Below, piece by piece: positions 2,741 through 58,569 of a DNA stretch of 64,000 nt. Where the stretch lies: contig JAXFQS010000084.1 of assembly GCA_034178815.1 (NCBI GenBank), positions 2,112-66,111 of the forward strand, in the 5' to 3' direction. The notes under the pieces are model-generated. The model was not told the DNA's origin. It ran no database searches and saw only the letters and a program-made list of their open reading frames with translations. A program made the position numbers and the translations under genes. Within the stretch, counting starts at the first letter, position 1. Each line of letters opens with the position of its first letter. The DNA is from Kiritimatiellia bacterium (lineage in GTDB: Bacteria; Verrucomicrobiota; Kiritimatiellia; RFP12; DVOR01).

Positions 2741-3368
2741 CATTCCCGCCGTCCATCGGCTACTGCTCGCCCGCTTCAAAGTCACCCCATCGCCCATTAT
2801 CGAACTCATCGCGGCGCAAACTCAAGACCCATTCAAAGTCCTGATTGGCACCATCCTGTCGGCCCGGACGAAGGATGCCTGCACCGCCGGTGCTTGCCGC
2901 CGGCTGTTGCCGCTCATACACGAACCCGAAGATCTGGCTCGGCTACCAATCGAGGAGTTGGAGCGGTTGATTTTCCCCGTCGGGTTCTACCGTGCCAAGG
3001 CGCGGCATCTGCACGACCTGCCCGCTGTGCTCGGCGAGAAGTTCGGCGGGGTCTTGCCGCAGACGGTCGAAGAACTTTGCGAACTGCCGGGGGTGGGAAG
3101 GAAAACGGCGAACCTCGTGGTGGCGGTTGGATTTGACAAGCCTGCCGTCTGCGTCGATGTTCATGTGCATCGCATCAGCAACCGTCTCGGCCTGGTGCAC
3201 ACGAAGTCGCCTTTCGAGACCGAAATGGCTCTGCGGAAGGTCTTGCCGAAGCGCTATTGGAAGACTTGGAACTCCATCATCGTCTCCTTCGGGCAGACGC
3301 TCTGCGCGCCCCGCAATCCCCGCTGTTGCGACTGCCCCATTCGCCGCTATTGCCCCAGCGCAACCTAA
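2727..3368 (+). CDS. nth: endonuclease III (HhH-GPD DNA glycosylase with 4Fe-4S cluster loop)
   Basis: HhH motif LPGVGRKTANLV, catalytic region VDVHVHRI, C-terminal Cys cluster CAPRNPRCCDCPIRRYC; start at internal Met (14-nt overlap with upstream gene). Confidence 0.8.
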   Translation: MTPSDIPAVHRLLLARFKVTPSPIIELIAAQTQDPFKVLIGTILSARTKDACTAGACRRLLPLIHEPEDLARLPIEELERLIFPVGFYRAKARHLHDLPAVLGEKFGGVLPQTVEELCELPGVGRKTANLVVAVGFDKPAVCVDVHVHRISNRLGLVHTKSPFETEMALRKVLPKRYWKTWNSIIVSFGQTLCAPRNPRCCDCPIRRYCPSAT

Positions 3369-3635
3369 TCAGCGGCTGATTGTCCAAGCCCCCGTCCTGC
3401 GCCGCCGCCCGAACCGATTCCGTCAACGGTACGCGCCGCCTGAAGCCTTTTGCCTGCCCGCACGAGGGGATTGCCGCACGCTTGGAGCCCATGCGCCGAC
3501 GCTCGCAAGAGGTACCAACCTAGCGAACCGATTTCTAGTCGACAATGGCGTCCGGGTGTGGTAAACTTTGGGTCGTTTAGGTTGGCACCTTTCGCCACCT
3601 TTCCTACGCACCTTTTTGCCCGAGGATTTTCCGCC

Positions 3636-4730
3636 ATGCTGATACTCGACAACGCCTTTGTCTCCGACTTTCTGGCCGACTTCGCCGAGCAGTCCGGTCG
3701 CCCCGTGCTCGACACGCCCAGCACCCGCTCGCGCCTGTCAGGGCGCCGCATCAACTGGGCCTCCAAAGCCGATTCCGGCCCGCACTACTCCACCTCTGAG
3801 AACGCCATTCCCCTAGTTGCGCAGGGCTTTTTCGGCGAAGAAATCAAGCGTATGGTCGGCTTGATGAAGGACAAAGCCCGCTTCCGTGAAGCCATCGCCG
3901 GCTGCTACCCCACCTTCCGCTGCGTGCGCGTCCCACTCGACGCCTTGAACGCCTGGACGCCAGACTTCTATCCCTTCGTCCTCAAGCCCGCCGTCGGCTT
4001 CCTGAGCGAAGGCGTCTACAATGTCCGAACCCCCGAGGAACTCGCCCGCGTCAAACGCGACATCTTGGATAACGCCCAGCGCAGCGCATTCTCCAAGGCC
4101 GTTGTCGACAAAACACTCTTCATCGCCGAAACCTTCCTCGACGGCCCCGAACTCGCAGCAGACGCCTTCTATCTCGACAACGGAACGCCCGTCATCACCA
4201 ACATCTACCTCCATCCCTTCAACGGCGCAGACGATGTCAGCGACCGTTGCTACATCACCTCGCGCTCCCTCCTCGATCGCTACCTCGAACCCATCCGCCA
4301 GGCCTATGCCACCATTGGCAAAACCCTCGGACTCAGCCGCATTCCCGTCCATGCCGAGTTCCGCGACACCGCCAGCGGAATCGTTCCAATCGAGTTCAAC
4401 CCTTTGCGCTTCGCCGGCTGGTGCACGACCGACTTGACCTGGTTTGCCTACCATATCAACCAGTACCAGCACTACTTCGACCAGCGCCAGCCCCAATTCC
4501 CCGAAGACGACGGGTGCCTTCACTATTTCATGCTCGCCGAAAGGCCCGCAGGCGTCGAGGGGAAACAATGCGACTACGCCGCTCTGCGCCAAGCCGTCCC
4601 CGGACTCGTTGAAATGCGTCCCATCGATTACAACCACAATCCCCTCGCCGCCATCAACTTCGGATCGGTTCCGGGGATGGCGGAAATCGACACCATTCTC
4701 AAGCTCGACATGGCCCAATTCTTCCACTGA
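3636..4730 (+). CDS. ATP-grasp domain protein (putative carboxylate-amine/peptide ligase), first gene of envelope operon
   Basis: ATP-grasp signatures: KDKARFREAI, FVLKPAVG (ATP-binding Lys), ETFLDGPELAADAF, HAEF; start at Met 3636, upstream ORF extension is low-complexity. Confidence 0.6.
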   Translation: MLILDNAFVSDFLADFAEQSGRPVLDTPSTRSRLSGRRINWASKADSGPHYSTSENAIPLVAQGFFGEEIKRMVGLMKDKARFREAIAGCYPTFRCVRVPLDALNAWTPDFYPFVLKPAVGFLSEGVYNVRTPEELARVKRDILDNAQRSAFSKAVVDKTLFIAETFLDGPELAADAFYLDNGTPVITNIYLHPFNGADDVSDRCYITSRSLLDRYLEPIRQAYATIGKTLGLSRIPVHAEFRDTASGIVPIEFNPLRFAGWCTTDLTWFAYHINQYQHYFDQRQPQFPEDDGCLHYFMLAERPAGVEGKQCDYAALRQAVPGLVEMRPIDYNHNPLAAINFGSVPGMAEIDTILKLDMAQFFH

Positions 4731-4741
4731 AGAACCGCCCG

Positions 4742-5851
4742 GTGATTCGAATCCGACACATCCGGTCTTACCTTGCGCTCCTGCTCCTCGGCGGTTGCGG
4801 TCAGCCCGTTCCCAAGGCAGAATCCAGACCTCAGGAAACGCCGCCGCCAGAGCCGCCCCCGCTCATCGTCGAGGTTGTTCCCCCCGAACCCGAGCCCTTC
4901 CGTCTCTACGCCCCGACCAGGCAGCACTGCCTCGACGGCAGCCGCGTGACCAACATCTTTATGCACGCTGGGAATGGCAACCCGGAGAGCGGGCTTTTTG
5001 GTTTCCAGCGTGCGGCGGCGGACGGCAGACCCAGGCTCCACGAGGGCATCGACATTGCACCGTTGGCGCGTGACAAACGCCGCCGACCGCTCGATGAAGT
5101 CACCGCCGCCGCAACGGGGACTGTCGCCTATGTCAACCGCCGCGCCGGGGATTCGTCCTACGGCATCTACATCGTCATTCTCCACCAAGCCCCTCATCTC
5201 GGACCTGTCTATACCCTCTATGCACACCTTGCTAGCATTGCCCCCGACATCAAGCCAGGAAAAACTGTCGTTGCTGGCAACCTTTTGGGGCGAATCGGCA
5301 ACACCCCCGGGTTTCCGCTCTCCCGCGCGCACCTCCACTTCGAATGCGGGCTAATCAACAACAACCGCTTTGCCCGCTGGTACCACGACCGCTACCTCAA
5401 GCGCCATCCCCCGAAAAAGAACCGCCCCCGACCTGCCGACCACGGTATCTTCCACGGCTCCAACCTCACGGGACTCAACCCGAACGACCTCTTCCGCATC
5501 CGTGCCGAAGACGCCAGCGTCCCCTTGCTTCCCTACCTCCGAGAGTTGCCCATCGCATTCACACTCCTCTGCAAAACCAATCGCATCCCCGACTACTTCC
5601 GCCGCTACCCCGCCCTCTGGAGCGGGGAGCCCTTCCGCCCGGGAACCATCCGACTAAGCGTCTCGCAGGAAGGGATTGTCCTGCGCGGCACGAACGAACC
5701 CGAATCGAACGAAGCAACAGCCCTCCCCAAAATCCTCGCCGTCAACACCACCCTGCCTGGACTTCTCGGTCGCCGCTATGTACGCCCCGACGGCGCGCGG
5801 TGGAAACTCACACCCTCGGGAGAAGAGTGGCTCGACGCCTTCCTCTACTGA
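4742..5851 (+). CDS. M23 family metallopeptidase lipoprotein (LytM/lysostaphin-like)
   Basis: lipobox LLLGGC, Pro-rich linker, HEGIDIAP (HxxxD) and HLHFE (HxH) M23 motifs; 12-nt gap from ATP-grasp gene. Confidence 0.7.
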   Translation: MIRIRHIRSYLALLLLGGCGQPVPKAESRPQETPPPEPPPLIVEVVPPEPEPFRLYAPTRQHCLDGSRVTNIFMHAGNGNPESGLFGFQRAAADGRPRLHEGIDIAPLARDKRRRPLDEVTAAATGTVAYVNRRAGDSSYGIYIVILHQAPHLGPVYTLYAHLASIAPDIKPGKTVVAGNLLGRIGNTPGFPLSRAHLHFECGLINNNRFARWYHDRYLKRHPPKKNRPRPADHGIFHGSNLTGLNPNDLFRIRAEDASVPLLPYLRELPIAFTLLCKTNRIPDYFRRYPALWSGEPFRPGTIRLSVSQEGIVLRGTNEPESNEATALPKILAVNTTLPGLLGRRYVRPDGARWKLTPSGEEWLDAFLY

Positions 5852-5857
5852 CACAGC

Positions 5858-6865
5858 ATGGCCGGAATCCGCATCGAAAACCTCACCAAGACCTACCCCG
5901 GCGGCTCGAAAGCCGTCGACAAAATCTCCCTCTCCATTGCTGACGGCGAGTTCATCGTACTCGTTGGCCCCTCCGGCTGCGGCAAGTCGACAACCCTCCG
6001 CATGGTGGCCGGGCTCGAAACCATCACCTCCGGCACAATCCACATCGGAGAACGCCTAGTCAACGACCTCCCCCCAAAAGCGCGCGACATCGCGATGGTC
6101 TTCCAAAACTACGCGCTCTATCCCCACATGAGCGTGGAAGAAAACATGGCATTCGGACTCAAACTCCGCAAAGTCCCGAAAGAAGAGATTCGCCGCCGCG
6201 TCGCCGAAACCGCCGCAGCCCTCGGTCTAGAACCCTACCTCAAACGCCGCCCATCCCAACTCTCCGGCGGCCAGCGCCAACGCGTGGCAGTCGGCCGCGC
6301 CATCGTCCGCCAACCAGCCGCATTCCTCTTCGACGAACCCCTCTCGAATCTCGATGCCAAAATGCGCGTAGAAATGCGCGAAGAGATTCACCGCCTACAC
6401 CGCCGCCTGGGCGCAACCATGCTCTATGTCACCCATGACCAAACCGAGGCAATGACCCTGGCCGACCGCGTCGTCGTGATGAACTCAGGCGTCATTCTCC
6501 AGACCGGAGCACCGTTGGAAGTCTACAACCGACCGGCCAATCTCTTCACCGCAGCCTTCATTGGAACGCCCCCGATGAATCTCGTCCCCGAGGGCGACCG
6601 CATCCTTGGGTTCCGTCCCGAAGATGCCCTTTTGACCGCCGAAACAGGCTCATTCGCGCTCCCCGAGGGTGTCGTGGAACTGCTTGAACCAGTGGGCGCG
6701 GAAACCATCGCCCATGTGAACCTTCCAGGGTGTTCGAGCCGCATCCAAGTCCGCCTTTCTCCCGATGCACCCATCCGCGAAGGTCAGCACCTGTCGCTCC
6801 ACATCAAAGCCGGGCGCCGCCACCTGTTCGACGCAGCCACGGGACAAAGAGTTGCCGACCGCTAA
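5858..6865 (+). CDS. ABC transporter ATP-binding protein, MalK/UgpC/MsiK type with C-terminal TOBE-like domain (no permease adjacent)
   Basis: Walker [10 protein letters not shown], signature LSGGQRQR, Walker [13 protein letters not shown]-loop YVTHDQ. Confidence 0.85.
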
Positions 6866-6871
6866 CCACCC

Positions 6872-8464
6872 TTGAAGGCCACCATTATGCAGCTCCGCTT
6901 CCCGACCGACACGCGCTGGCGTCTACTCCCGCTGGCCCTGATCGTTATCGCCTATGCCTTCTGGCCGGCAATTTCTTTCACACTGTGGGTTTTCGGAGAT
7001 ACTTCCGAGGACATGGCCTACGGCTGGGTGATTCCCTTGATTGTCGGGGCCATCGTCTGGAAGCGCCGAGATGCGCTCCGTTGTGCGGCGGAGAGCCCCA
7101 GCCTAGTGGGTACGCTTTCGTGGCTGATTGGGCTTCTGTTCTTCTGGATTGGCAGCCGCGGGAACCAGCAACGCTTTCTGCAGTTGGCACTGGTGTGGAT
7201 GGTTTGGGCGATACCGTATGCTTTCTGGGGATGGAGGGTGGCGAAGCTGATGATTTACCCGGCGTGCTACTCGCTTTTGATTATTCCTCTAAGTTTTCTG
7301 GACGCCATCACCTTTCCGCTCCGTCTGGCGTCTTCTTGGGTATCCGTGGCTCTGCTCAATGGTTTCGGCATCGAGGCGAGACGGATAGGAACGGCGCTGA
7401 TTGGAGCGAACTTCCAACTGGATGTGGCGGATCCTTGTAGCGGGATTCGTTCGCTTGTCGTGCTGTTGGCATTGACTGCTGGCTATGCGGGGATTCACCG
7501 CCACTTCCGGTGGTGGACGAAAGCTCTGCTGGTGGCATCTGCATTGCCGCTGGCCTTTCTGGGAAATATCATCCGGTTGACGACGACGGCAGTGGCGTGT
7601 GCCTGTTTCGGGCAAGAAATCGGGATGTACTATCACGACCAGGCGGGGTATCTGACCTTCCCGTTGGTGATGCTGATTGTCCTTGTGTTGGTCGACTACT
7701 TCTCGAATCGGCAGCCGGCTCCGCCGCTTCAACGGGAGACTCCGATTCCTTCCGCGGGGTGGATTTCGCTACTGCCAATCGGCGCCATGATGGGCATCTT
7801 CGTGACTGGCTCCTGGCTTATCCAAAGGCAGCCGCCGCCCGACTATGAGCCCGATTCCTACATTGCCCAGGCGCTTCCGGATGTGCCTGGTTTCACCTCC
7901 TCGTTCGACTTGCATTGCCAGAATCCGGACTGTCTCTTGTCGACCTCCAGCGACAAGAAAGCGTGCCCTCTCTGCGGCGGGAAACTGGAGCGTGTGCCGC
8001 TTGCCGAACTGACGATTCTGCCGTCGGACACGCGTTTCCTGAAGCGCAACTACACGGGGGCGGACGGGGTTCCTCTTCGGGTCAGCGTTTTAGTCTCCGG
8101 GCGCTCGCGGATGAGCATCCACCGTCCGGAGATGTGCCTTCCCGGGCAGGGCTACACGATTTCGGACAGCTATGTGGTGGAGATACCTCTGGCCGACGGT
8201 TCAACGGTCAAGGCCAACTGTGTCACGGCCGCGAGGCTGGGCGAACCTCCGGTTGGACTGCTCTATTGGTTTGAGAATCCGCACGGTAGCGCCTACTCGC
8301 ACTATGAGCGAATTTTCTCGGATATTTGGGCGCGGACGGTGCACAACCGGATGATTCGATGGAGCGCGATTCTGATTATGCGCGAACGCCCCTACGATGA
8401 GGCGGCGCTGGAGCAGACGGCGCAGTTTCTGAGCCTGTGGCGGCCTCGGGTGGTGCGCCGCTGA
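6872..8464 (+). CDS. exosortase (8-TM transpeptidase) fused to C-terminal EpsI-family domain containing a Cys4 zinc-ribbon insert
   Basis: exosortase motif VADPCSGIRSL within polytopic membrane region; C-terminal EpsI signature SIHRPEMCLPGQGYT; insert CQNPDCLLSTSSDKKACPLCGG. Confidence 0.75.
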   Translation: MKATIMQLRFPTDTRWRLLPLALIVIAYAFWPAISFTLWVFGDTSEDMAYGWVIPLIVGAIVWKRRDALRCAAESPSLVGTLSWLIGLLFFWIGSRGNQQRFLQLALVWMVWAIPYAFWGWRVAKLMIYPACYSLLIIPLSFLDAITFPLRLASSWVSVALLNGFGIEARRIGTALIGANFQLDVADPCSGIRSLVVLLALTAGYAGIHRHFRWWTKALLVASALPLAFLGNIIRLTTTAVACACFGQEIGMYYHDQAGYLTFPLVMLIVLVLVDYFSNRQPAPPLQRETPIPSAGWISLLPIGAMMGIFVTGSWLIQRQPPPDYEPDSYIAQALPDVPGFTSSFDLHCQNPDCLLSTSSDKKACPLCGGKLERVPLAELTILPSDTRFLKRNYTGADGVPLRVSVLVSGRSRMSIHRPEMCLPGQGYTISDSYVVEIPLADGSTVKANCVTAARLGEPPVGLLYWFENPHGSAYSHYERIFSDIWARTVHNRMIRWSAILIMRERPYDEAALEQTAQFLSLWRPRVVRR

Positions 8465-9585
8465 TGAACCTTTTCTCGCATCTCTCCGAAGAGGAGGACA
8501 GGGAGTTCCTGTCGCGGCAGATTCTCACCTGCATCGGAAACAAGCGAGCACTTTTGGGGCCGATTGCCGATGCGATAGGGGTTGTGAGGAAGGCGCTCGG
8601 TGGGGGAAAAATGCGTTGCTTCGACCTCTTTTCAGGGAGCGGAATCGTCTCGCGCCTGTTCAAGCAATTCGCCTCGCTCGTGGTCGCCTGCGATCAGGAA
8701 CGCTACGCCTCGGTGGTCTCCAGGTGCTACCTTTCCAACCGCCGTGTACTGGCGGAAAAGGAGTTCGCCAACTGCTTCGAAGAGTGGAAGAACTGGGTCG
8801 AGAAGAACCTCGAACCGGGCTTTCTCACGCGCCTCTATGCGCCCGCGAACGATGCCGACATCCAGCCGGGCGAGCGGGCCTTCTACACCCGGGCGAATGC
8901 CGAAATCCTGGATACCGCCCGCCGCGCACTCGACCGCATCGTTCCCCCGCGCTATGCCGACTTGCTGCTGGGGCCGCTCCTTTCCGAAGCCTCGATCCAC
9001 GCCAACACTTCCGGCGTGTTCAAGGGCTTCTACAAGAATCGCAAAGGCACCGGAGCGTTCGGCGGCGAAGGTCGAAACGCGCTCACGCGCATCTGCGGAA
9101 AGGTCGTTCTGCAACACCCCGTCCTCTCCCGTTTCGACTGCGACAGCCTCGTCCTAGAAGGCGACGCCAACGCACTCGCCGCGACAGCCCCGGAGGTCGA
9201 TCTGGCCTATGTCGACCCGCCCTACAATCAACACCCCTACGGGTCGAACTACTTTATGCTGAACCTGTTGGCTGACTACCGGGAGCCGGATGCCGTCAGC
9301 CCGGTCAGCGGCATTCCGCGCAACTGGAACCGGTCGGTCTACAACAGCCGAAAGGAGGCCGCACCGGCCTTCTTCAGCCTGCTGGAAACCATCCGCGCCA
9401 AGTACCTGCTCGTCTCCTACAACTCCGAAGGATTCATTCCGCACGCCGAACTGGAAGCCTGCCTGGCGCGGCTCGGGCAAGTCACCTCGACCGCCATCTC
9501 CTACAACACCTTCCGGGGAAGCCGAAACCTCCGCGCGCGCGCACCGCGCGTCATCGAGTACCTCTTCCTCGTCAAGCGCGCCTGA
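8464..9585 (+). CDS. Dam-family (D12 class, alpha group) N6-adenine DNA methyltransferase, apparent orphan
   Basis: motif X-like IGNKRALLGPI, motif I DLFSGSG, motif IV DPPY (DLAYVDPPYNQHPYG); start ATG overlaps exosortase stop (TGATG); no restriction endonuclease gene nearby. Confidence 0.7.
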   Translation: MNLFSHLSEEEDREFLSRQILTCIGNKRALLGPIADAIGVVRKALGGGKMRCFDLFSGSGIVSRLFKQFASLVVACDQERYASVVSRCYLSNRRVLAEKEFANCFEEWKNWVEKNLEPGFLTRLYAPANDADIQPGERAFYTRANAEILDTARRALDRIVPPRYADLLLGPLLSEASIHANTSGVFKGFYKNRKGTGAFGGEGRNALTRICGKVVLQHPVLSRFDCDSLVLEGDANALAATAPEVDLAYVDPPYNQHPYGSNYFMLNLLADYREPDAVSPVSGIPRNWNRSVYNSRKEAAPAFFSLLETIRAKYLLVSYNSEGFIPHAELEACLARLGQVTSTAISYNTFRGSRNLRARAPRVIEYLFLVKRA

Positions 9586-9717
9586 CGGCGACTAGGCAGG
9601 AGTCGCCTGCGTTGATACCAACCTTTCGGGCGAAACGATAGCCACCACACATGCCCCAAGGTGCCTATCCGACCGTGTGAAAGGTTCCCACCTATCCCCC
9701 TCCCCTAAAACAGAAAC

Positions 9718-9742
9718 GGGAGGTTGCGATAGGCAACCTCCC
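9718..9742. repeat. hairpin GGGAGGTTGC-gata-GGCAACCTCCC in convergent intergenic region; motif family member / bidirectional terminator candidate
   Basis: 10-bp perfect stem. Confidence 0.5.
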
Positions 9743-9768
9743 TCAGAGGGACACAGCCTGTCGAACGG

Positions 9769-12700
9769 CTAGAAGTGGCGCGGCCCCAGCGCCGGGCCAA
9801 GCGAACGCTCCTGCTGAAGCAGTTTCAACGCCTCGGGGATACGCTGCCTCAGTTGCGACACCTGGCTCAACCGCTTCAGCGCCGTCTCGCCGCCAACCTT
9901 GAGCGCCTGAAGCAACGCCTGGTGCCCATACTGCACCTGCCCTACTTCGTAGTAGAGAATTGCCAAGTTCCCCCACATCATCCAGTCATTCGGACAGAGT
10001 TTCAGATAGCGGGAATAGATGCTCATCACGGGCTTGTACGCCTGCGCCTGAAGCGCCGCTTGGAGCAGCGTCTGCAATTGTTCAGGCGAGAGATTGGGAT
10101 ACTTCAACGCCCGATCGATAGCCGTTGCCGCCGCCTCCAAGCGGCGCATTGTCGCCAGCACACGGGCAATCGTGCAAAGATCGGCAGGCGCCAAATTGGG
10201 AATCTTGAGCAGTTGCTCGTAGGCCTGCCCCGCGTGAAGCCCATCGCCCAAGTCATAATAGGCGGAAGCCAGCGTGGCGAGTTCCTTCGGAGAAATGGTT
10301 CCATTGCCCATTTTCGGCGCCAACGCAGCAACAGTCTGGCGCGCCTTGAGCACCCCTTCGAGGTTCGCGCAAAGACCAAGCGAACGCGTATTCTTCGGAT
10401 CTCTGGCGTTGAACTCGCGCAGCACGCGAAGCGCTTCCTCCAGCCGGTTTTGGGGAATCAGCACCTCTTGAACCAGGCGGAAGTTGGCCTCCGGGCTGAC
10501 CGGGTAGAGCGCACGCCCCTGCTCGAAAGCAATCTCGCTCTCGCGCCTCATGCCGCGATTGGCATAGAGCCCCGCCAACGCGCAACGCAACTTCGAGAAA
10601 GATTTCTGCGCGACCAAATCGCGACGGAATTTGCGGTCACGGGTCAACCGCCGCAGGTACCAGTCCCAGAAATCCAAGTCGGCATTCGCCGTCCTTCTGT
10701 CCAGCGGAGTCTCCTTCGCGTTGATCTTCATAATCAGGCCGTGCGGCGAGAGGTAAGGATACATCCACGGAATGACATAACTCTCTTCGAGATAGAAGTC
10801 GTGGCGAGCGATATTCTTCTCCCACATCATACGGCAAAGGATGCCGTTGATTTCCATGACCCCGAGTGCTCCTGAGACTTGAACGCGGCCGTTTTCCACC
10901 CGCAAATCGGCGTTGGCGGCGCGCTTGCCCTGATTGACCTCTTCGACATAGATTTGGAACGCCTTTGCCGAATCATCCGCCGAAGGGATCCACATCTGAT
11001 TGCCGTAAAGATCGCGTTCGACCGACATATAGGTGCCATCGGCGAGGGCATTCTGCGTGATGAGAAAGACATCCGGCCGCACATTCGCCGCATAGATCAT
11101 ATAGGTCGGCACGAAACGCCCTGGATCGGTTCCGCCGAAGAAGACGGCATTCGTGGTCATTGCCGGAGGATAGAGCGGATTGGGCAGAGGTTCTTCGTCG
11201 GGGGCGAGTTCTTCACGAATCGCGTCCGCCCCGCGCAACTGGTAATTGCCGAACTGCCAACCATAGTCGTGCCCATTCTGCTCGGCGGCACTGGCCTTGA
11301 AAACCAGATGGTCGTTCATAAAGTTCTCCCATACCGGCACGAGCGGCACCATCAGGGCAAGCACCGTAGCCCCAAGGCACGCCGGACGGAAGCAACTCGG
11401 CAGGTACTTGGCGCACACCTCCGCGCCAACGAAGAGCGCCAGAATCAACCCGTAGCCAATCCAGAGGGAATAGAGACCGTGGGAGGAGATGAACTTCACC
11501 TTCTGGATGAAGTAGTCCTGCAAATCGCCCGTGGGGTTGGCCAAAGCGATGAGCATGACCGACATCACCAGAAAGGCCAACATCGTGCCGATGAGCCATT
11601 GGCGGCTAAGCGGCGAAAACTCCTGGTGAAGCACGCAGTCGGCATCCGTCTTGCTGCCAGATGGGAGGAAGTTCCAAGCAAGCAAAAGCGCGCCGAATGT
11701 CAATCCAAATCCGAGGAAGATTGAGACAACACTGATGAGAACGGGCAAATGAGTGTGCCATATTGGAGTGTGCCACATTGTCGGCAGGACAGCCAACAAG
11801 ATACGCGAAACCAACGCCCCGATTCCCAGCACGATTCCGACAATCGCCAAGCCGCGCGTGATACCCTCGGCGGTCATTCTGTCACGCCAGGAATCGCGGG
11901 CTATCGAGACCACTTGCGACAGCCCAATGGTCACGAATCCAACGGCGCTGAGCAACACCATCCCGCCCATCAGATACTTGTCGATACGCCAAAGCGGCTC
12001 GGTCTGGAAGAGTTCTGCTATGAAAACCACCAGGGCGCAGAACAGGAAGAGCACAACGGCGGGCAGCAGCATCCGGATTCGGCGATTGCGCCAGATGAAG
12101 TTCCAGGCGGAGAATGGCAGAATCGCCAACGGCGCGACCAGCAGGGTGAATTGGACGCGCACATCGGTGAAGTAGTCGCCCAGTTGCTGGAGAAAGCGTT
12201 CAGTGAAGATGCTCTGGGCCGAAATCTGCTCGTACTGCCCGCGCGTAATGGCGTGCTTGAAGCCTTCCCAAGTCCGCGGATAGCCCCAGTTCATCGGGGG
12301 ATTGCGCAGGTCGGAGACGATTGGCATGTAGGCGTAGAAACTCACGCCCAATTCGCAGAAGAAGATGGTCGCGGCGACCGTTCTTCCGTTGGGCAGACAA
12401 ATCAAAGCCAGCCCGAGCAGGAGGAAGTTCCACAACACCGGCCACCAGAACCACCAGGTGCTGGGGTGGGACAGTCCTAGGAGCGCACCTTTGCGCAACA
12501 GCAGGTAGACCGTCAACTGCACAAACGCCACCGCCACCGCGAAGAAGGTGGCGCCTCGGGTCAGCGCGGATGTGACCGTCAGATAGACTAGTAGCGCCAC
12601 GACCACAACACCGACCGAGAGCCAATCCTGTATAGGACCGCGGAACCCTGTCGGTATGGATTGGGTAGGGAGCATTCCTATGACCACCAGCAAAACCAAC

Positions 12701-13905
12701 GCAACTACGCCAAGGGCGACAACAATGGGAACCAGGTCGGAGAAGCGTCTGCCCTGGTTGGAGAGCAATCCGCCGATGGCCGACAACCCGATTGCGACCA
12801 GAACGAGGAGTCCAATCCAGCAATAGGTCGCCGGCGCAATCAAAGGTGCCCAGTCGAGATGGGCGTCCACGACCGGAGCCGTGGTCGAGAACCTAGCGGC
12901 AAGGGCGACAAGCACCGCGCCGACGATTAGAGGAGCCGCGAGGAGCAACATCTGCCAGTCAAGCGGCCTCTTGGCAAAAGTATTGAGGCGCGAATCCGGG
13001 CGCGAAACGGCAACCTTGGTCAGAAGCGTCAACGGCACGACAAGGCAGAGGCAGGCAACGCCCGAAACCAGCAGCCCGGCGTGCGGATAGGCGAAACGCG
13101 CCCCTGGTTCAACGAGTGGACGCAGGATGCAAGGGGTCGAACTGGTGGCTCCGGGGAATGCCGTAGGCAGGGCGCCGAGCTGCAACATCCAGGCCGTCAG
13201 AAGGATGGGAATCGCCACCAGAACAAAGTCCCGGAAAAGGCTGGCGTTGCGCATGAAGATGATGAAGGCGAGCGGCACCGCCGCCAGCAGGAGCACCTGG
13301 TAGTTGGTCAGTCCGAGACCAAAAACAAAGGCCAACAGCCAGAGCGTTTTGTCGCGCGGGGCTTTCATCCACTGGTAGGTCAAGAGAAACACCCACATCA
13401 GGAAAAGCGCACCAAGAGAGTAGACCTCGACAATCGTCGACTGAGACCACATCACCGGAGAGAAGGCAAAGGCCAGTGCGCCGCCAACTCCGCCGGCCCA
13501 ACTGAACAGCGTGTCAAAAGCGGAAGACTTCTCCTCCTCCCGTCCGTTCCCACCGCGCAAATCGCTGAGCATGTCAGAGCCGGATCGCGTGATGAGCATC
13601 GCCGTGATGCCAGCCGCCAAAGCGCCCGCAACCGCCGAAGCCAGCGACACGGCGTAGGCCGGCGTAGGCTGGCCTCGGAAAGTAACCCAGTCGAACAGAC
13701 GGCAGAAACCCCAACAGATCATCGTCCAGATGGGATAGCCGGGCGGATGGGGAACGCCGAGTGCGTTGGCGGCGGTAGCCAACTCGCCCGAATCTTCCAA
13801 CCCGACAGAGGGCCCCAAGGTGAAGAAGTAGACGAGGAACGCCACGAGTGTGCCGGTCCAGAACGAAGCCCAATCGACGCGGCGGAAGAAGGAAGTGTTT
13901 TGCAT
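9769..13905 (-). CDS. giant polytopic membrane protein: N-terminal DUF2723 (GT-C/TMEM260-like glycosyltransferase fold) plus many TM helices and C-terminal TPR repeats
   Basis: N-terminus FFTLGPSVGLEDSGELATAANALGVPHPPGYPIW typical of DUF2723; long hydrophobic core; C-terminal TPR-like helical repeats; 21-nt downstream of topA (same strand). Confidence 0.5.
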   Translation of the reverse strand: MQNTSFFRRVDWASFWTGTLVAFLVYFFTLGPSVGLEDSGELATAANALGVPHPPGYPIWTMICWGFCRLFDWVTFRGQPTPAYAVSLASAVAGALAAGITAMLITRSGSDMLSDLRGGNGREEEKSSAFDTLFSWAGGVGGALAFAFSPVMWSQSTIVEVYSLGALFLMWVFLLTYQWMKAPRDKTLWLLAFVFGLGLTNYQVLLLAAVPLAFIIFMRNASLFRDFVLVAIPILLTAWMLQLGALPTAFPGATSSTPCILRPLVEPGARFAYPHAGLLVSGVACLCLVVPLTLLTKVAVSRPDSRLNTFAKRPLDWQMLLLAAPLIVGAVLVALAARFSTTAPVVDAHLDWAPLIAPATYCWIGLLVLVAIGLSAIGGLLSNQGRRFSDLVPIVVALGVVALVLLVVIGMLPTQSIPTGFRGPIQDWLSVGVVVVALLVYLTVTSALTRGATFFAVAVAFVQLTVYLLLRKGALLGLSHPSTWWFWWPVLWNFLLLGLALICLPNGRTVAATIFFCELGVSFYAYMPIVSDLRNPPMNWGYPRTWEGFKHAITRGQYEQISAQSIFTERFLQQLGDYFTDVRVQFTLLVAPLAILPFSAWNFIWRNRRIRMLLPAVVLFLFCALVVFIAELFQTEPLWRIDKYLMGGMVLLSAVGFVTIGLSQVVSIARDSWRDRMTAEGITRGLAIVGIVLGIGALVSRILLAVLPTMWHTPIWHTHLPVLISVVSIFLGFGLTFGALLLAWNFLPSGSKTDADCVLHQEFSPLSRQWLIGTMLAFLVMSVMLIALANPTGDLQDYFIQKVKFISSHGLYSLWIGYGLILALFVGAEVCAKYLPSCFRPACLGATVLALMVPLVPVWENFMNDHLVFKASAAEQNGHDYGWQFGNYQLRGADAIREELAPDEEPLPNPLYPPAMTTNAVFFGGTDPGRFVPTYMIYAANVRPDVFLITQNALADGTYMSVERDLYGNQMWIPSADDSAKAFQIYVEEVNQGKRAANADLRVENGRVQVSGALGVMEINGILCRMMWEKNIARHDFYLEESYVIPWMYPYLSPHGLIMKINAKETPLDRRTANADLDFWDWYLRRLTRDRKFRRDLVAQKSFSKLRCALAGLYANRGMRRESEIAFEQGRALYPVSPEANFRLVQEVLIPQNRLEEALRVLREFNARDPKNTRSLGLCANLEGVLKARQTVAALAPKMGNGTISPKELATLASAYYDLGDGLHAGQAYEQLLKIPNLAPADLCTIARVLATMRRLEAAATAIDRALKYPNLSPEQLQTLLQAALQAQAYKPVMSIYSRYLKLCPNDWMMWGNLAILYYEVGQVQYGHQALLQALKVGGETALKRLSQVSQLRQRIPEALKLLQQERSLGPALGPRHF

Positions 13906-13926
13906 AACGGTTGCGCCTTGGAAAGG

Positions 13927-16464
13927 TTAGGCTTTAGCAGGCGGAGGATTCAGGCCATATTGGGCGGCCAACTGGTCGAAGTCGGCAATCTGCTCGCGAT
14001 ACTTGACCACCAGACGCTTGAGTACCTGCACCTGCTTAGGCGAGAGGTAGGCCTTCTGCGCGTACTGGCGAGAGAGGCTGGAGAAGAACGACTTGTCGTC
14101 ATAAGTCATACGCCCTCGTTTGAACGGCTCGGCCCACTCTTTGACCGAGTCGAGGGCGCGAATAATATCTTGAAGCCCCGCTTGGGCAGGATCCTCCTTG
14201 GGCGGCTCATCTGGAACATCGAGCCCCAATTCGCGCAACCGGGCCGAACCATTATCCAACTTCCGAACACTACGAAGCAGCATCCGGTCAAGAGCCCGCG
14301 CCTGGGCCGGTGAGAGCGCACGGCCGCCCGCGACCTGAGCCTTGATAGAGTCGACAAAGCGGCGCGTCTCGTCAGGCAACTGGAGTTCGGCCAGCAAAGC
14401 AAAGCGAGCCTCGGCTGCGCTCGTGTCGGGAGCATCGGAAGATTGGGGCTCCTCCGCCTGGTAGCCAAGACCGGCAAGCACGGACTCCGCCGTCGGCAAC
14501 TGCTCCCTGTACCTCTGCGCCAGCCGGATAAGCGACGCAAGTTGACGGTCGCTAATGCGATCAGGTGTCTCAGCGAACTGGCGGGAGATGGATTCGACGA
14601 ACTTGTGGTCGTCCAGCGTGCGGCGACCGTATTTGACCGGCTCGTGCCACTCCTTGACCCCGGAGAGCAGTTCGAGCAACACCTGGACGCGCTTGGGGTC
14701 GGCAGCCGGATCTTGTGTGTGCGCCATCCAGTCGCTGAAGTCGGAATAGAACTTGGCCATCATTTCGGTCCAAGGCACGGTGCCGTGTTCGACATGGTCG
14801 AGTTTGGACTCCATATCGGCGGTGAAGTCGACATTGACGAGGTTGCCGAGTTTGGCGACCAGCAGGTCGTTGACCTGAAACCCGAAGTCTGTCGGGGCGA
14901 TTTGACGCTTGTTCCGGGAGATGTACTTGCGGGCGTCGAGGGTCTCAATGATGGCGGCGTAGGTGGACGGACGACCGACTCCGTTGCTCTCAAGGGCTTT
15001 GATGAGTGAGGCTTCGCTGAAACGCTTCGGGGGCTTGGTCTCTTTCCGGGTTGTGAGCCATTCGAGAGGCTGGAGACGATCGCCCACAACCAGTTCGGGG
15101 AGCGTATCGGGTTCTTCGTCCTCGTCGTCATCGTCCTCGGCAATATCACTCTGGGGCTTGCGGGCCTTCTTGGGATCGGCCTTGAGGACACGCTGGAAGC
15201 CGGGGAAGAGCACCTCGGTGGCGGAAGCGCTGAAGAGGTAGGAATGCGCTTGCTCCGGAGGCGGAGTCGAAAGGATTTCAACGGTATGTTGCCTCAGTTT
15301 CTGGGGGGCCATTTGGCTGGCGACGAAACGCCGCCAAATCAGGTCGTAAAGCTTGAAGGCAGGTGGGTCGAGCAAAGGGCGAACCTTTTCCGGCGTCAGG
15401 TTGACATCGGTGGGACGAATAGCCTCGTGCGCCTCCTGGGCATTGGTTCGGCTGGAGAAGAAGTTGGGCTTGGCCGGATAGTAGTCGGTGCCATAATGCT
15501 CCAAGATGAAGGTCTTAGCCGCCGTGCGCGCCTCCTGGGAGAGGTTGACGGAGTCCGTTCGCATATAGGTAATCAATCCGACCGGCGCTCCGTTGATTTC
15601 GACGCCTTCGTAAAGGTGCTGCGCCAGCGACATCGTGCGCGAGGGGGAAAAGCCGCAGAAGCTCGATGCCGCCTGCTGGAGGGTGGAGGTGATAAAGGGC
15701 GGCACGGCTCGGCGGAGAATGTCCTTGGTCTGCAAATCCTTGACGACCAGTGCGCGGCCTTCCAGTTGCGAAAGATGCGCCTGGGCGGCTGTTTCATCGG
15801 AAATCGTGACCTTGGCCTGTCCATCGATACGGGCCAGTCGCGCGGTGAAACTCTCATTGCCCTTGGCGACCTTCACGCCCATAACCCAGTAGGCTTCAGG
15901 CTTGAACTGGAGGATTTCGCGTTCGCGCTCGCAGACGAGCCTCAGGGCAACGGACTGGACACGGCCGGCGGAGGCTCCCCGGCGCACCTTTCTCCAAAGC
16001 ATAGGGCTGACTTGGTAGCCGACAATGCGGTCTAGCACGCGGCGAGCCTGCTGGGCATTGACGCGGTCGATATCGATTTCGCCAGGATGGGCGAAGGCAT
16101 TGCGGACGGCGTGCTCGGTGATTTCGTTGTATTGAACGCGCTTGAACTCGGCCTTGGGGGCGGCCTTTTGAAGCACTTCGCGCAGATGCCAGGCTATGGC
16201 CTCCCCTTCGCGGTCAGGGTCGGGGGCAAGGTAAATAGTGGGGCATTCCTTGGCGGCCTTGCGCAGTTCCTCAACTAACTTCTTCTTGTTCTTGGCGATG
16301 ACATATTCGGGTTTGAAGCCGTGCTCGATGTCCACGCCCAGCATCCGCTCTGGCAAATCGCGGATGTGCCCGACAGACGATTTGACGAGGTAGTCGGGGC
16401 CGAGAATCTTGCCGATGGTTTTGGCCTTGGCGGGAGATTCGACGATAACAAGTTGCTTAGCCAT
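13927..16464 (-). CDS. topA: DNA topoisomerase I with non-canonical Cys-free tandem C-terminal repeats
   Basis: Toprim N-terminus MAKQLVIVESPAKAKTIGKILG, GHIRDLP, active-site region; C-terminal approx. 240 aa contains two approx. 100-aa repeats (VKEWxEPxKxGRxTxDDxxF..SRQxA...YREQ) instead of Zn ribbons. Confidence 0.85.
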   Translation of the reverse strand: MAKQLVIVESPAKAKTIGKILGPDYLVKSSVGHIRDLPERMLGVDIEHGFKPEYVIAKNKKKLVEELRKAAKECPTIYLAPDPDREGEAIAWHLREVLQKAAPKAEFKRVQYNEITEHAVRNAFAHPGEIDIDRVNAQQARRVLDRIVGYQVSPMLWRKVRRGASAGRVQSVALRLVCEREREILQFKPEAYWVMGVKVAKGNESFTARLARIDGQAKVTISDETAAQAHLSQLEGRALVVKDLQTKDILRRAVPPFITSTLQQAASSFCGFSPSRTMSLAQHLYEGVEINGAPVGLITYMRTDSVNLSQEARTAAKTFILEHYGTDYYPAKPNFFSSRTNAQEAHEAIRPTDVNLTPEKVRPLLDPPAFKLYDLIWRRFVASQMAPQKLRQHTVEILSTPPPEQAHSYLFSASATEVLFPGFQRVLKADPKKARKPQSDIAEDDDDEDEEPDTLPELVVGDRLQPLEWLTTRKETKPPKRFSEASLIKALESNGVGRPSTYAAIIETLDARKYISRNKRQIAPTDFGFQVNDLLVAKLGNLVNVDFTADMESKLDHVEHGTVPWTEMMAKFYSDFSDWMAHTQDPAADPKRVQVLLELLSGVKEWHEPVKYGRRTLDDHKFVESISRQFAETPDRISDRQLASLIRLAQRYREQLPTAESVLAGLGYQAEEPQSSDAPDTSAAEARFALLAELQLPDETRRFVDSIKAQVAGGRALSPAQARALDRMLLRSVRKLDNGSARLRELGLDVPDEPPKEDPAQAGLQDIIRALDSVKEWAEPFKRGRMTYDDKSFFSSLSRQYAQKAYLSPKQVQVLKRLVVKYREQIADFDQLAAQYGLNPPPAKA

Positions 16465-21260: not shown

Positions 21261-23195
21261 TTACAGTCCTTGTTTCAAACGCTGCTTGATTTTGACCCCT
21301 TCGACGGCTTGCCCGCAGAGGATGCAAATGTCGGCATAAACCCGCGAGAGTTCGTCAGACTTCCACCCGTTCCTGTCACAGACCCCGCGGGCGAGGCGGA
21401 TGGCTTCCTGGGGCATTCGCCCCTCCCAGTCGGCCGCCAAGATACGCGCCTGGGCCAGTTCGGATTGGTCGCGGAGTCCCTCGACGGAGGGGAATCTTTC
21501 AGGCAGTTTCCGCCACAGGTCGAGGGCTAGTCGATAGGCCTGGGCATCCTCGGCGGCATAGGCGGCGGCGAGGTGGTATTCAAGGCAGGAAGGGGCTTTC
21601 GAGGCGGCCGTGCGGAAGTGTTCGAGGGCGGCAGGGAAGTCGGTCTTTGCTCGCAAGGAGAAGGCGTAGTTGAAGTGGGCGGCGGCGGTGTCGTGCCCCA
21701 TATCGAGAATCGCGGCGCGGGCCTTGGCAGCGCCGGGAATGTCGCCCAGTTTCTGCCGTCGCTGAGCCTCCAGTTCGAGGCGGTCGACGAGTTCGAGAAT
21801 GAGCGGATCCTGGGGATTTGCCTGTCTGGGGAAGGTTTTGCCGTCGCCCAGACGGGTGGCGATGGCGAGTTGGCGTCCTTTGCCAGATGCGGCGAGGGCA
21901 CGCGTCAGGAGGGAGTTGTAGACCTGCTCGTTCAGTCCCGCGCCGGGTTGGAGCCAGTCGAGGCGATTGGTGGCAATCTCCGGGAGAGATTGGAGGATAC
22001 GGGCGCCCTGCTCTCGTGCGAACAAGAGGCGTATGGTGCTGGCAACCTTTTGGTTGCGGTGGTGGGTTACATAGGCATCGAGTCCCGAGGTTCCGGCGAC
22101 ATAGGCGGCGAAGAGGTTGGGCAGGGAGGTCAAGCCGGCCGCGGCAAGGGCTCGCATCAAGGCGGGCTCGGCATAGCGCAGAAGCATATTGCCTAGGGGA
22201 AGGTCGAACGGGGCGTTGGAAAGAAGCAGGAGGTAGTCGTTGATGCTGGTCTGCCAAAGTTGGGCGTGAGCGTAGCGCTTGCGCCAGAAGGCGAGTTCTT
22301 GAGCGAGGGCGGGTGGGTCGAGCGGTCGGACATCGAGTATAATCGCGAGGAGGCCGTCGGGGGCGAGATTTCGTGGCGTTGGATGGCGCGATGTGGGCCA
22401 TTTCCAGGCGGGAGGCTGGCGGTAGAGGATGATATCGTAGCCGTTGGTGCGCGGCTGGGACGCGAGCAGGGAATGGAATAGACTTCGGTGGATTTCTGGA
22501 CAATCGCCCATCACGATTCCACTTTGGGCGCGGGGGCGGACGAGCAGAGGCAGGGCGGTCTGGAGGGTGGTTGCGGCAAGGAATCGTTGTTCCATCGCCA
22601 ACGGGCGGCCATCGGGCGCGAAGCTGATGCGCCCATAGCCTTCAACGGGGCTGGCGGTCGGCTTGGCGGCGTAGCCGGAGTCGCGATTCGCCAGCAACCC
22701 AAATGCGCCAGCCGCGCCGGATAGATCTAGGCTCCGAACGGTGAACAAGGTGGCCAGTCCGGTCAGCAGCAGAAGGGTTGCCCTCCAGAGGCGCCATTGG
22801 CTGATGCCGCGGGCAAGAGCATACCAGACTGCCCCCCACAATCCAATTGTCAGAAAGAAGGTTCGCACCAATGCTTGGGCGTAAAGCAAGGAGGAACGCT
22901 CTGGAGCGACTACGAGTTGAGCCCAGCCGTGCTGTAGCCACTTGAGAAGGAACGGCTGCGCCGCCCAGGCGGCAATCAGACACACCGCCCCCGCCCAACT
23001 GCGGAAAGGTTTGAAACGGGCGATGCCCCACCCCAGAAGCAAGGTTAGCCCCACGCCCAAAAGGACTACGCGCCAACTCCAGAGGGTGCTTCCGCCAAAG
23101 GCAATCAAGGCGGATATTTCCAGCACGGCAAGCAATACGCCTTCAAGGAGAAATAGCGCGGCAAGGAAGGATTGGAGGCGGGGCTTGGGCATCAA
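21261..23195 (-). CDS. polytopic membrane protein with spermidine-synthase-like domain and C-terminal TPR repeats (paralog of 58570..60669)
   Basis: N-terminal multi-TM region; mid-region YDIILYRQP / APDGLLAIIL resembling aminopropyltransferase fold; C-terminal TPR-like helices. Confidence 0.4.
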   Translation of the reverse strand: MMPKPRLQSFLAALFLLEGVLLAVLEISALIAFGGSTLWSWRVVLLGVGLTLLLGWGIARFKPFRSWAGAVCLIAAWAAQPFLLKWLQHGWAQLVVAPERSSLLYAQALVRTFFLTIGLWGAVWYALARGISQWRLWRATLLLLTGLATLFTVRSLDLSGAAGAFGLLANRDSGYAAKPTASPVEGYGRISFAPDGRPLAMEQRFLAATTLQTALPLLVRPRAQSGIVMGDCPEIHRSLFHSLLASQPRTNGYDIILYRQPPAWKWPTSRHPTPRNLAPDGLLAIILDVRPLDPPALAQELAFWRKRYAHAQLWQTSINDYLLLLSNAPFDLPLGNMLLRYAEPALMRALAAAGLTSLPNLFAAYVAGTSGLDAYVTHHRNQKVASTIRLLFAREQGARILQSLPEIATNRLDWLQPGAGLNEQVYNSLLTRALAASGKGRQLAIATRLGDGKTFPRQANPQDPLILELVDRLELEAQRRQKLGDIPGAAKARAAILDMGHDTAAAHFNYAFSLRAKTDFPAALEHFRTAASKAPSCLEYHLAAAYAAEDAQAYRLALDLWRKLPERFPSVEGLRDQSELAQARILAADWEGRMPQEAIRLARGVCDRNGWKSDELSRVYADICILCGQAVEGVKIKQRLKQGL

Positions 23196-58197: not shown

Positions 58198-58569
58198 CCG
58201 GCCAAGGCAGGAATATTCTCACCTTGACCGGGGTGGACGCTGGGGGGCAGCGTCCGTGACAGGGCGTGTTGGGAACCCTGTCGGGGTGGGTGTGAAGAGA
58301 CGATACCAAAATGCCGCACCCCGATGCAAGAGAATTCGTCCGCTGTCCCAAAAAATCTTTCGATGCCACCCCCGAAACGATTCCCTAGCACCTTCGGGAG
58401 TCATCGATGCGCACGACCGGAACGCCAAGTTGAGCACCTTTCGCCTCCATAAATACCCACCCGCTGCCGGCTGAGATTGCAACCTTTCCCGCTACGGCGC
58501 GGGTATGAGATTGATTTTTCCCGCCATTTATCCTACACTCTCCCTAAACTCACCCTCAGGACACCCCCA

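Follow-up and report, generated by a model that had tools for sequence, protein, structure and literature searches.

The question raised by this locus is whether an exosortase that carries an EpsI domain in the same polypeptide, with four cysteines placed between the membrane region and the EpsI core, belongs to one of the named exosortase (Xrt) families, and what these cysteines may contribute to the enzyme. The gene lies at positions 6872-8464 (+) of the 64-kb stretch of Kiritimatiellia DNA analyzed here (contig JAXFQS010000084.1), the whole of which is referred to as the window. A sequence-only reading had recognized the exosortase, the EpsI domain and the four-cysteine (Cys4) segment, and had proposed that they may define a distinct Xrt subfamily. 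Taken as a whole, the evidence is best explained by an exosortase-EpsI fusion with a periplasmic, probably zinc-binding Cys4 cassette, which belongs to an unnamed clade of Kiritimatiellota and Lentisphaerota; we assign a probability of about 0.72 to this reading. The Cys4 cassette and the E..LP.DT..K..Y segment that follows it appear to define an undescribed subtype of EpsI, widespread in Kiritimatiellota/Lentisphaerota, as a variant of a known system.

The more likely start codon of the gene is ATG 6887, which would give a protein of 525 amino acids (aa), since it is preceded by a GAAGG element at a distance of 8 nucleotides (nt) and the closest two homologues have lengths of 526 and 525 aa. 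Residue numbers are counted throughout from the TTG at 6872. The TGA stop codon (8462-8464) overlaps the ATG of the next gene at 8464 (TGATG). The three motifs quoted in the sequence-only reading are all present in this open reading frame at the expected places: ADPCSGIRS at residues 186-194 (nt 7427-7453), CQNPDCLLSTSSDKKACPLCGG at 349-370 (nt 7916-7981) and SIHRPEMCLPGQGY at 415-428 (nt 8114-8155). The features of the protein are listed below, where A1 is an alignment of 118 sequences with 38% mean column identity, A2 an alignment with XrtD and A3 the family of free-standing EpsI proteins.

6872..8464, plus strand: whole coding sequence of the exosortase-EpsI fusion, from the list of open reading frames (530 aa from TTG 6872, 525 aa from ATG 6887)
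6941..7693, plus strand: exosortase (EpsH) catalytic domain with eight transmembrane (TM) helices, residues 24-274, from PF09721, TIGR02602, AlphaFold2 (AF2) helices and hydropathy
7427..7453, plus strand: ADPCSGIRS motif of the putative catalytic Cys (C189, with R193), conserved in the 118 sequences and common to XrtD
7562..7579, plus strand: GNIIRL with N232 and R235 in TM7, both invariant in A1 and in XrtD
7634..7636, plus strand: H255 in the loop that joins TM7 to TM8 on the outer side, conserved in at least 90% of the A1 sequences and in all of A2
7763..7825, plus strand: ninth TM helix, residues 298-318, from a hydropathy peak, flanking charges and an AF2 helix over the same residues
7916..7981, plus strand: Cys4 ribbon cassette CQNPDC-x10-CPLCGG (C349, C354, C365, C368), from conservation, AF2 and its absence from XrtD
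7994..8053, plus strand: post-ribbon segment VPLAELTILPSDTRFLKRNY (E379, L383, P384, T387, Y394), conserved and specific to ribbon-type EpsI
8030..8446, plus strand: EpsI (DUF3485) core with a Mog1/PsbP-like fold, residues 387-525
8114..8155, plus strand: EpsI hallmark (H417, R418, C422, L423, P424, G427), from conservation

Exosortase and EpsI domains and the named Xrt families

The N-terminal region was recognized by Pfam Exosortase_EpsH (PF09721), which matches residues 24-274 with 148.9 bits against a gathering score of 25.7, by the generic NCBIfam exosortase model TIGR02602 (8TM_EpsH; 115 bits, cut-off 105.55) and by the TIGR04178 signature (67.9 bits, cut-off 23). C189, S190 and G191 of the ADPCSGIRS motif are invariant in A1, and R193 is conserved in at least 90% of its sequences. 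A catalytic triad of Cys, Arg and His has been proposed for exosortases (Haft preprint, 10.1101/2023.06.07.544157), and the putative counterparts of all three residues are present here as C189, R235 and H255. The C-terminal region matches the DUF3485/EpsI family (PF11984) over residues 387-525 with 45.1 bits against a gathering score of 26.1, and with both Pfam families above their gathering scores the description of an exosortase with EpsI fused in one polypeptide is borne out. The EpsI hallmark that had been noted in this region is also found: its six listed residues are invariant in A1, and H417 and C422 of H-x-P-x-x-C (nt 8120-8137) are invariant in 313/313 EpsI domains, including the distant ones of XrtD. 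This strictly conserved pair might form an additional site, for catalysis or for a ligand.

Such a fusion, though genuine, was on record by 2006, when EpsH proteins with a C-terminal EpsI-homologous region were already described and EpsI had no known function (Haft et al. 2006, PMC1569441). The NCBIfam model TIGR02914 is accordingly named 'exosortase C-terminal domain/associated protein EpsI', and XrtD and several other named models are fusion-length profiles of 450-520 residues.

The predicted topology, based on hydropathy and charge, places eight TM helices in the exosortase domain with C189, R235 and H255 on the outer side of the inner membrane. The '8-TM region' of the sequence-only reading therefore holds for the exosortase helices themselves and has to be extended by the ninth TM helix that comes after them. 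A basic N-terminus on the inside, alternating loop charges and an acidic stretch past TM9 were observed, and the signal anchor of free-standing EpsI homologues sits at the position equivalent to the ninth helix. From the charge distribution and these signal-anchored free-standing forms, topology rules would place the EpsI domain and its ribbon in the periplasm; a cytoplasmic ribbon was considered and rejected on the same two grounds. The AF2 model of the fusion is confident, with a mean predicted local distance difference test (pLDDT) value of 92.3 and a predicted template modeling score (pTM) of 0.88, as is the model of the free-standing homologue P0259 (pLDDT 93.5, pTM 0.88). The exosortase helices span residues 14-280 at pLDDT values of ~90-97.

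By profile comparison, the protein is a member of the exosortase superfamily outside all named Xrt families. Of the named NCBIfam models, the highest score was that of XrtD (TIGR04152; 129.5 bits, cut-off 400), and XrtA (TIGR03109) scored 125.1 bits with the full protein and 127.5 bits with the TM domain alone (cut-off 208). Further scores were 102.5 bits for XrtW (cut-off 425), 94 for XrtV (313) and 85 for XrtB (275), and when the TM domain was scored alone no named family was reached, XrtA being the closest. XrtW, XrtJ, XrtO, XrtT, XrtZ and XrtN gave 20-103 bits against cut-offs of 200-475, and their matches lie only in the TM domain or in the EpsI core past the ribbon, with the Cys4 segment judged by the extent of these matches. 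The named EpsI types V and B scored 31 and 25 bits against cut-offs of ~220-228. Only generic NCBI names are attached to members of the family. The sequence-only reading had allowed for assignment to a well-described subfamily in which the Cys4 segment is standard; no named Xrt model reached its cut-off.

That the protein is nonetheless an ordinary member of XrtD, XrtA, XrtW or a similar named subfamily, with Cys4 as a standard part, could be argued from the top NCBIfam matches, which are to these three, and from XrtD, in which exosortase and EpsI are also fused, at a comparable length. The XrtD proteins WP_088215538.1 (Haematobacter massiliensis) and WP_011655502.1 (Roseobacter denitrificans) likewise have ~530 aa, in which a linker TM helix connects an 8-TM exosortase to EpsI at the C-terminus, and XrtD shares C189, R193, N232, R235, H255 and H-x-P-E-x-C-L-P-x-x-G with the window protein. 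However, all named models stay far under their cut-offs, the three annotated XrtD proteins compared are 19-21% identical to the window protein and have neither the Cys4 cassette nor E..LP.DT..K..Y, the fused-family profiles match on either side of the ribbon only, and the names given by NCBI are generic, so this alternative has next to no chance of being right. XrtD is also alphaproteobacterial (Rhodobacterales plasmids), whereas the ribbon clade is found in Kiritimatiellota/Lentisphaerota.

The Cys4 cassette and its distribution

At E<=1e-5, 610 proteins were retrieved by homology, and the 120 of them listed are all full-length fusions of 518-607 aa. The pattern C-x4-C ... C-x2-C occurs at the same position in 120/120 of these listed homologues, C349, C354, C365 and C368 are invariant in A1, and among 310 related EpsI domains 304 carry all four Cys, while four are without the cassette and two read C-H-C-C. 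About 150 of the Cys4-bearing domains are those of free-standing EpsI proteins of ~250 aa. The invariance in A1 and the completeness in 304/310 domains argue that Cys4 is not a chance pattern. The loop between the knuckles has 10-21 residues among the listed fusions and up to 51 in P0157, with the window protein in the shortest class. A Gly follows the second knuckle in nearly all members, and this knuckle reads C-P-x-C-G in most. P346, Q350, N351, P366 and G369, which flank the knuckles, are conserved in fused and free-standing members at 30-40% overall identity. In the post-ribbon segment, E379, L383, P384, T387 and Y394 are invariant in A1 and A3, and the segment is kept in ribbon-less variants. 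The multiple alignment thus makes Cys4 a trait of the Kiritimatiellota/Lentisphaerota family and not of one protein.

For comparison with XrtD, plasmids were searched by tblastn for XrtD proteins annotated by the NCBI pipeline PGAP, and three of these were compared in one alignment with the window protein and with three members of its family. In all three annotated XrtD fusions, both the ribbon and the E..LP.DT..K..Y segment after it fall in a gap of the alignment. Additionally, all Pfam and NCBIfam EpsI matches start past the ribbon, in fused and free-standing members, and no Pfam or NCBIfam model covers the Cys4 cassette. As had been suspected from the sequence, the segment is foreign to the EpsI domains described so far, and relative to them it appears to be an insertion. 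No mention of a Cys4-bearing EpsI subtype was found in the searchable literature.

Full-length natural variants without the ribbon also occur. L077 and P0241 are full-length fused proteins with DPCSG intact in which the segment between the 'G.W.G' and 'E..LP.DT' strands is missing, and P0255 is likewise without the cassette, with the flanking strands kept. These variants indicate, from sequence alignment, that Cys4 is a discrete and dispensable cassette of ~25-75 residues. Together with the Cys-to-His variants of L072 (9986-11635 (+)), P0198 and P0172, the ribbon-less L077 and P0241 make up a natural mutant series.

The same ribbon-EpsI is also encoded as a free-standing protein. Residues 319-530 were used alone as a phmmer query in an exhaustive search of 1.84 billion representatives, with 765 matches at E<=1e-3 and 360 at E<=1e-10. 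Of 145 new top representatives, 111 were short (~240-265 aa), and 104 of these 111 have Cys4 beside the SIHRP(E/Q)xCLP core. The N-terminus of the free-standing proteins is short and basic and leads into a single hydrophobic helix (signal anchor). The idea that these ~250-aa matches are gene fragments was rejected, since they have a basic N-terminus and signal anchor of their own, are consistent in length and lie downstream of an exosortase gene that is separate and complete. When the fused family (A1) and the free-standing family (A3) were aligned with hhalign, the probability was 100% (E 1.3e-65) over 223 columns that include the ribbon. The free-standing ribbon-EpsI proteins score below every NCBIfam cut-off, the generic one included.

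In three loci (L089, L094 and L095), an exosortase of 292-321 aa is followed directly downstream by an overlapping ribbon-EpsI gene, inside polysaccharide loci. These split exosortases are closest to XrtA and below its cut-off (168.7 vs 208). As in the XrtA system with separate EpsI (Methylobacillus epsH/epsI, PEP-CTERM; PMC1569441), the gene order is xrt then epsI in exopolysaccharide (EPS) loci. Unlike that system, the EpsI partner of the ribbon clade bears the Cys4 cassette and falls below the TIGR02914 cut-off, and PEP-CTERM substrates were not found nearby (window and flanks of related loci). Locus L094 also has two exosortase genes <4 kb apart, at 9126-10765 (+) and 13270-14169 (-), only one of which is paired with ribbon-EpsI, so that more than one exosortase system may be present in Kiritimatiellia genomes.

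A rough neighbor-joining distance tree of 313 C-terminal domains, calculated without support values, placed the window protein in a clade of ~150 leaves that is ~90% fused, with a sister group of ~141 leaves that is mostly free-standing. The fused ribbon-bearing enzymes thus seem to be largely one lineage inside a wider ribbon-EpsI clade, and Cys4 marks a phylum-wide EpsI subtype and not a fused Xrt subfamily as such. In the proposal of a distinct Xrt subfamily, the part that stands is that no named subfamily is reached; the part that does not is the marker, since Cys4 goes with EpsI, also where EpsI is free-standing. A scan of one genome per species returned 552 loci with a relative, and taxonomy and neighborhoods were taken from the best 80 of these 552. 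The best 80 are full-length and nearly all labeled Kiritimatiellia, Kiritimatiellaeota, Lentisphaeraceae, Lentisphaerales or Candidatus Spyradenecus, with a few labeled Verrucomicrobia or Akkermansia, and the free-standing forms carry the same taxon labels as the fused ones. The nearest relative, in the Kiritimatiellia metagenome-assembled genome (MAG) PUUB40_bin.015, is 96% identical and syntenic with the window. Many members come from MAGs of gut, rumen and anoxic sediment, and Kiritimatiellota/Lentisphaerota include glycan degraders.

Metal site, disulfides or other roles of the four cysteines

A structural Zn(Cys)4 site is, on balance, the probable role of the four cysteines. When ten diverse ribbon segments were compared in isolation with Pfam, the sub-threshold matches were almost all to Cys4 zinc modules: DNA_ligase_ZBD was matched by 9/10 segments (best 24.0 bits, gathering score 25.8), and the others included Zn_ribbon_8, the Rad50 zinc hook, Zn_ribbon_Top1 and rubredoxin-like domains. 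In the AF2 model, the ribbon region has pLDDT values of 93-97, and strands assigned by DSSP at 342-344/347-349 lead to the first knuckle and at 357-358/364 to the second, with a further strand at 371-373. This predicted arrangement corresponds to the two-hairpin layout of a zinc ribbon, so the AlphaFold check proposed with the sequence-only reading gave a confident model with two hairpins carrying the knuckles. Like classical zinc ribbons (Zn_ribbon_8, the C4 finger of DNA_ligase_ZBD), the cassette has four Cys in two knuckles, C-P-x-C-G, and two predicted hairpins plus a third strand. It differs from them in having C-x4-C in place of the first CxxC, in reaching no family threshold and in its predicted periplasmic location; to our knowledge, classical zinc ribbons are cytoplasmic modules that bind nucleic acids or proteins.

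Several observations weigh against the favored explanation as a whole. No Pfam zinc-ribbon family reaches its gathering score with any of the ten isolated segments, and the first knuckle is C-x4-C and not the classical CxxC. Zn(Cys)4 sites are uncommon in the periplasm, where disulfides are the default expectation. The EpsI model TIGR02914 scores 19.0 bits and does not reach its cut-off of 42.8. Additionally, the window locus has housekeeping neighbors and is not a polysaccharide locus, and a six-frame search for tripartite C-terminal tails (motif, hydrophobic helix and basic cluster) yielded no convincing substrate in the 64-kb window or <10 kb from the gene in ~87 loci (1.33 Mb).

The predicted extracytoplasmic position of the EpsI domain leads directly to the main competitor of a metal site, in which the four Cys form two structural disulfides in an oxidizing periplasm and staple a pair of hairpins without any metal. 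Periplasmic Cys pairs are usually oxidized, and the unclassical first knuckle and the sub-threshold zinc-ribbon scores would also be expected under this explanation. However, in-register Cys-to-His swaps have occurred three times independently, in P0198 (C-x4-H ... C-x4-C), in P0172 and in L072 (C-x4-C ... C-x4-H-x3-H). At a metal site, His in place of Cys is a conservative change, but with two disulfides one Cys would be left unpaired. The second knuckle is moreover the classical zinc-knuckle C-P-x-C-G in most members, and in the gut, rumen and anoxic sediments from which many of them come periplasmic oxidation may be weak. The His swaps, the CPxCG knuckle and the two-hairpin AF2 model together favor metal over disulfides, which we regard as possible but unlikely. 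A rubredoxin-like iron or redox center, or a metal or redox sensor that regulates the exosortase, would also make use of the knuckles, given that Cys4 knuckle pairs can bind Fe and that the cassette would lie in a compartment with varying metal and redox conditions; single segments gave weak matches to the rubredoxin-like RUBY_RBDX, to HiPIP and to the rubrerythrin-like NF033497. Those matches are sub-threshold and no commoner than the ones to structural zinc fingers, and the neighborhood is without a conserved redox partner, so little chance is given to this role in place of purely structural zinc. The natural ribbon-less proteins, which are full-length and retain all catalytic and EpsI hallmark residues, and the inter-knuckle loop, which is very variable in length and sequence, might be taken to mean that the cassette is a tolerated, functionless decoration inserted in this lineage. 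The four ligand positions and their flanks (P346, Q350, N351, P366, G369) are, however, kept in fused and free-standing proteins at 30-40% identity, which indicates purifying selection on the knuckles and leaves similarly slim prospects for a cassette without function.

Genomic context, proposed function and meaning

In the window, the fusion gene forms one run on the same strand with the genes of an M23 peptidase, of an ABC-transporter ATPase and of a D12-class adenine methylase, and the surrounding genes encode a Mur ligase, Nth, an ATP-grasp protein and a topoisomerase. The methylase gene at 8464-9585 (+), a D12-class N6-adenine DNA methyltransferase (PF02086, DPPY motif), is the one whose start overlaps the exosortase stop. 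The TGATG overlap suggests translational coupling of exosortase and methyltransferase, two functionally unrelated genes, and no cognate restriction enzyme was seen for the adjoining methyltransferase. Two genes downstream of the fusion, 9769-13905 (-) encodes a 1378-aa protein with an N-terminal TMEM260-like region (DUF2723; a GT-C protein resembling protein O-mannosyltransferases) and C-terminal TPR repeats. With this TMEM260-like and TPR gene, one element of the typical context of the relatives is retained in the window.

Amongst the best 80 loci, a ~640-aa protein with Glycos_transf_4 and CoA_binding_3 domains is encoded directly downstream (+1) in 31 and a Polysacc_synt_2 dehydratase directly upstream (-1) in 22. 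A DegT aminotransferase, a PglD-like acetyltransferase and Bac_transf are found farther upstream. The loci of relatives have one to three TMEM260-like GT-C proteins; in many other genomes (L008, L010, L022, L031 and L035), TMEM260-like proteins smaller than that of the window stand directly beside the ribbon-type exosortase. The gene order in loci L005-L084 (e.g., L022 ~3000-13600; L003 1-13628) is Bac_transf, PglD-like, TMEM260-like, DegT and Polysacc_synt_2, then Xrt/EpsI, then Glycos_transf_4 with CoA_binding_3. An unannotated 508-aa membrane protein is found at -1 in 11 loci. By gene content, the context of most relatives resembles a pathway for a sugar of the N,N'-diacetylbacillosamine (diNAcBac) type accompanied by protein-glycosyltransferase-like enzymes, which suggests that sorting may be coupled to glycan synthesis.

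Amongst possible substrates, VPLPA-CTERM proteins were looked for, and none was present in the 64-kb window. A 692-aa VIT and VWA protein of locus L095 (12199-14277 (-)) ends in GLGGTGPVGPLFALWALWMRRRAKQQRG, a tripartite tail resembling the GlyGly-CTERM type. A rhomboid-like gene (10945-11613 (-)) lies two genes from it, and both are beside the split exosortase/ribbon-EpsI pair. The tail was set aside as an exosortase substrate; with the rhomboid-like gene nearby, it probably belongs to a separate system of the rhombosortase type.

Other genes of the window were also recorded. Domains of an M60-like peptidase of the enhancin type, of a SUMF1-like FGE-sulfatase and of a GDSL lipase/esterase are united, unusually, in a 1510-aa secreted protein at 42946-47478 (-), which may have mucins or other glycoproteins as its targets. 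A 1144-aa protein at 36172-39606 (-) has an acyltransferase of the polyketide synthase (PKS) type, a PS-DH dehydratase, a KS-AT linker and a C-terminal 4'-phosphopantetheinyl transferase (PPTase), and from its domains looks like a fragmentary PKS or polyunsaturated fatty acid (PUFA) synthase-like protein fused to its own PPTase. Genes at 21261-23195 (-), 51926-53842 (-) and 58477-60669 (+), encoding 644, 638 and 730 aa with a coding-like bias in the GC content of third codon positions, gave no Pfam match at E<=1e-4.

As a proposed mechanism, the fusion, an exosortase by family, would act as a polytopic inner-membrane cysteine endopeptidase or transpeptidase with C189, R235 and H255 at the outer face, and the ninth TM helix would carry the EpsI domain across the membrane into the periplasm. 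Near the start of EpsI, the Cys4 cassette would hold its two knuckles on two beta-hairpins, most likely as a structural Zn(Cys)4 ribbon that gives the periplasmic domain added stiffness or reach. The clade would use the same ribbon-EpsI either fused to the exosortase or encoded immediately downstream of it. As with other exosortases, from whose homology the sorting activity is inferred, the enzyme would remove the C-terminal tripartite sorting signal of secreted proteins.

The EpsI core has a Mog1/PsbP-like fold, which it shares with the Eag chaperones SciW (6xrb) and PA0094 (1tu1) and with DcrB (6e8a); further proteins of this fold are LpqN (6e5d), PsbP (2xb3) and Mog1 (5yfg). The fold hints at a possible binding of lipid or of a hydrophobic helix by EpsI. 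When the PDB was searched with a sequence profile, the only matches were spurious ones to C2H2 zinc fingers, with E above 0.1, and we know of no solved structure of any exosortase or EpsI.

A more far-reaching reading, which we consider decidedly unlikely, makes ribbon-EpsI the docking or regulatory module of an unrecognized, Kiritimatiellota-specific sorting and glycosylation system. In it, a metal- or redox-dependent Cys4 would position the Mog1/PsbP-like domain, binding hydrophobic helices or lipids, over the active site and thereby link cleavage of the signal at the C-terminus with transfer to a glycan or lipid based on diNAcBac. This glycan or lipid would be made by the adjacent PglF/DegT/PglD/PglC-like, WecA-like and TMEM260-like GT-C enzymes. 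If true, the docking role would give EpsI a concrete function.

Under the favored explanation, that of an exosortase-EpsI fusion with a periplasmic and probably zinc-binding cassette, a whole phylum has an EpsI subtype whose periplasmic cassette is conserved and probably binds metal, and which is present in databases under the generic names given by PGAP. New family models for 'ribbon-type EpsI' and its fused Xrt clade are therefore justified, and the current understanding of exosortases is not overturned. The fused, split and ribbon-less natural forms provide a ready comparative set for experiments. Exosortases are widespread as sorting enzymes, with a mechanism and substrates that have been little characterized, and the ribbon subtype offers a handle on the function of EpsI.

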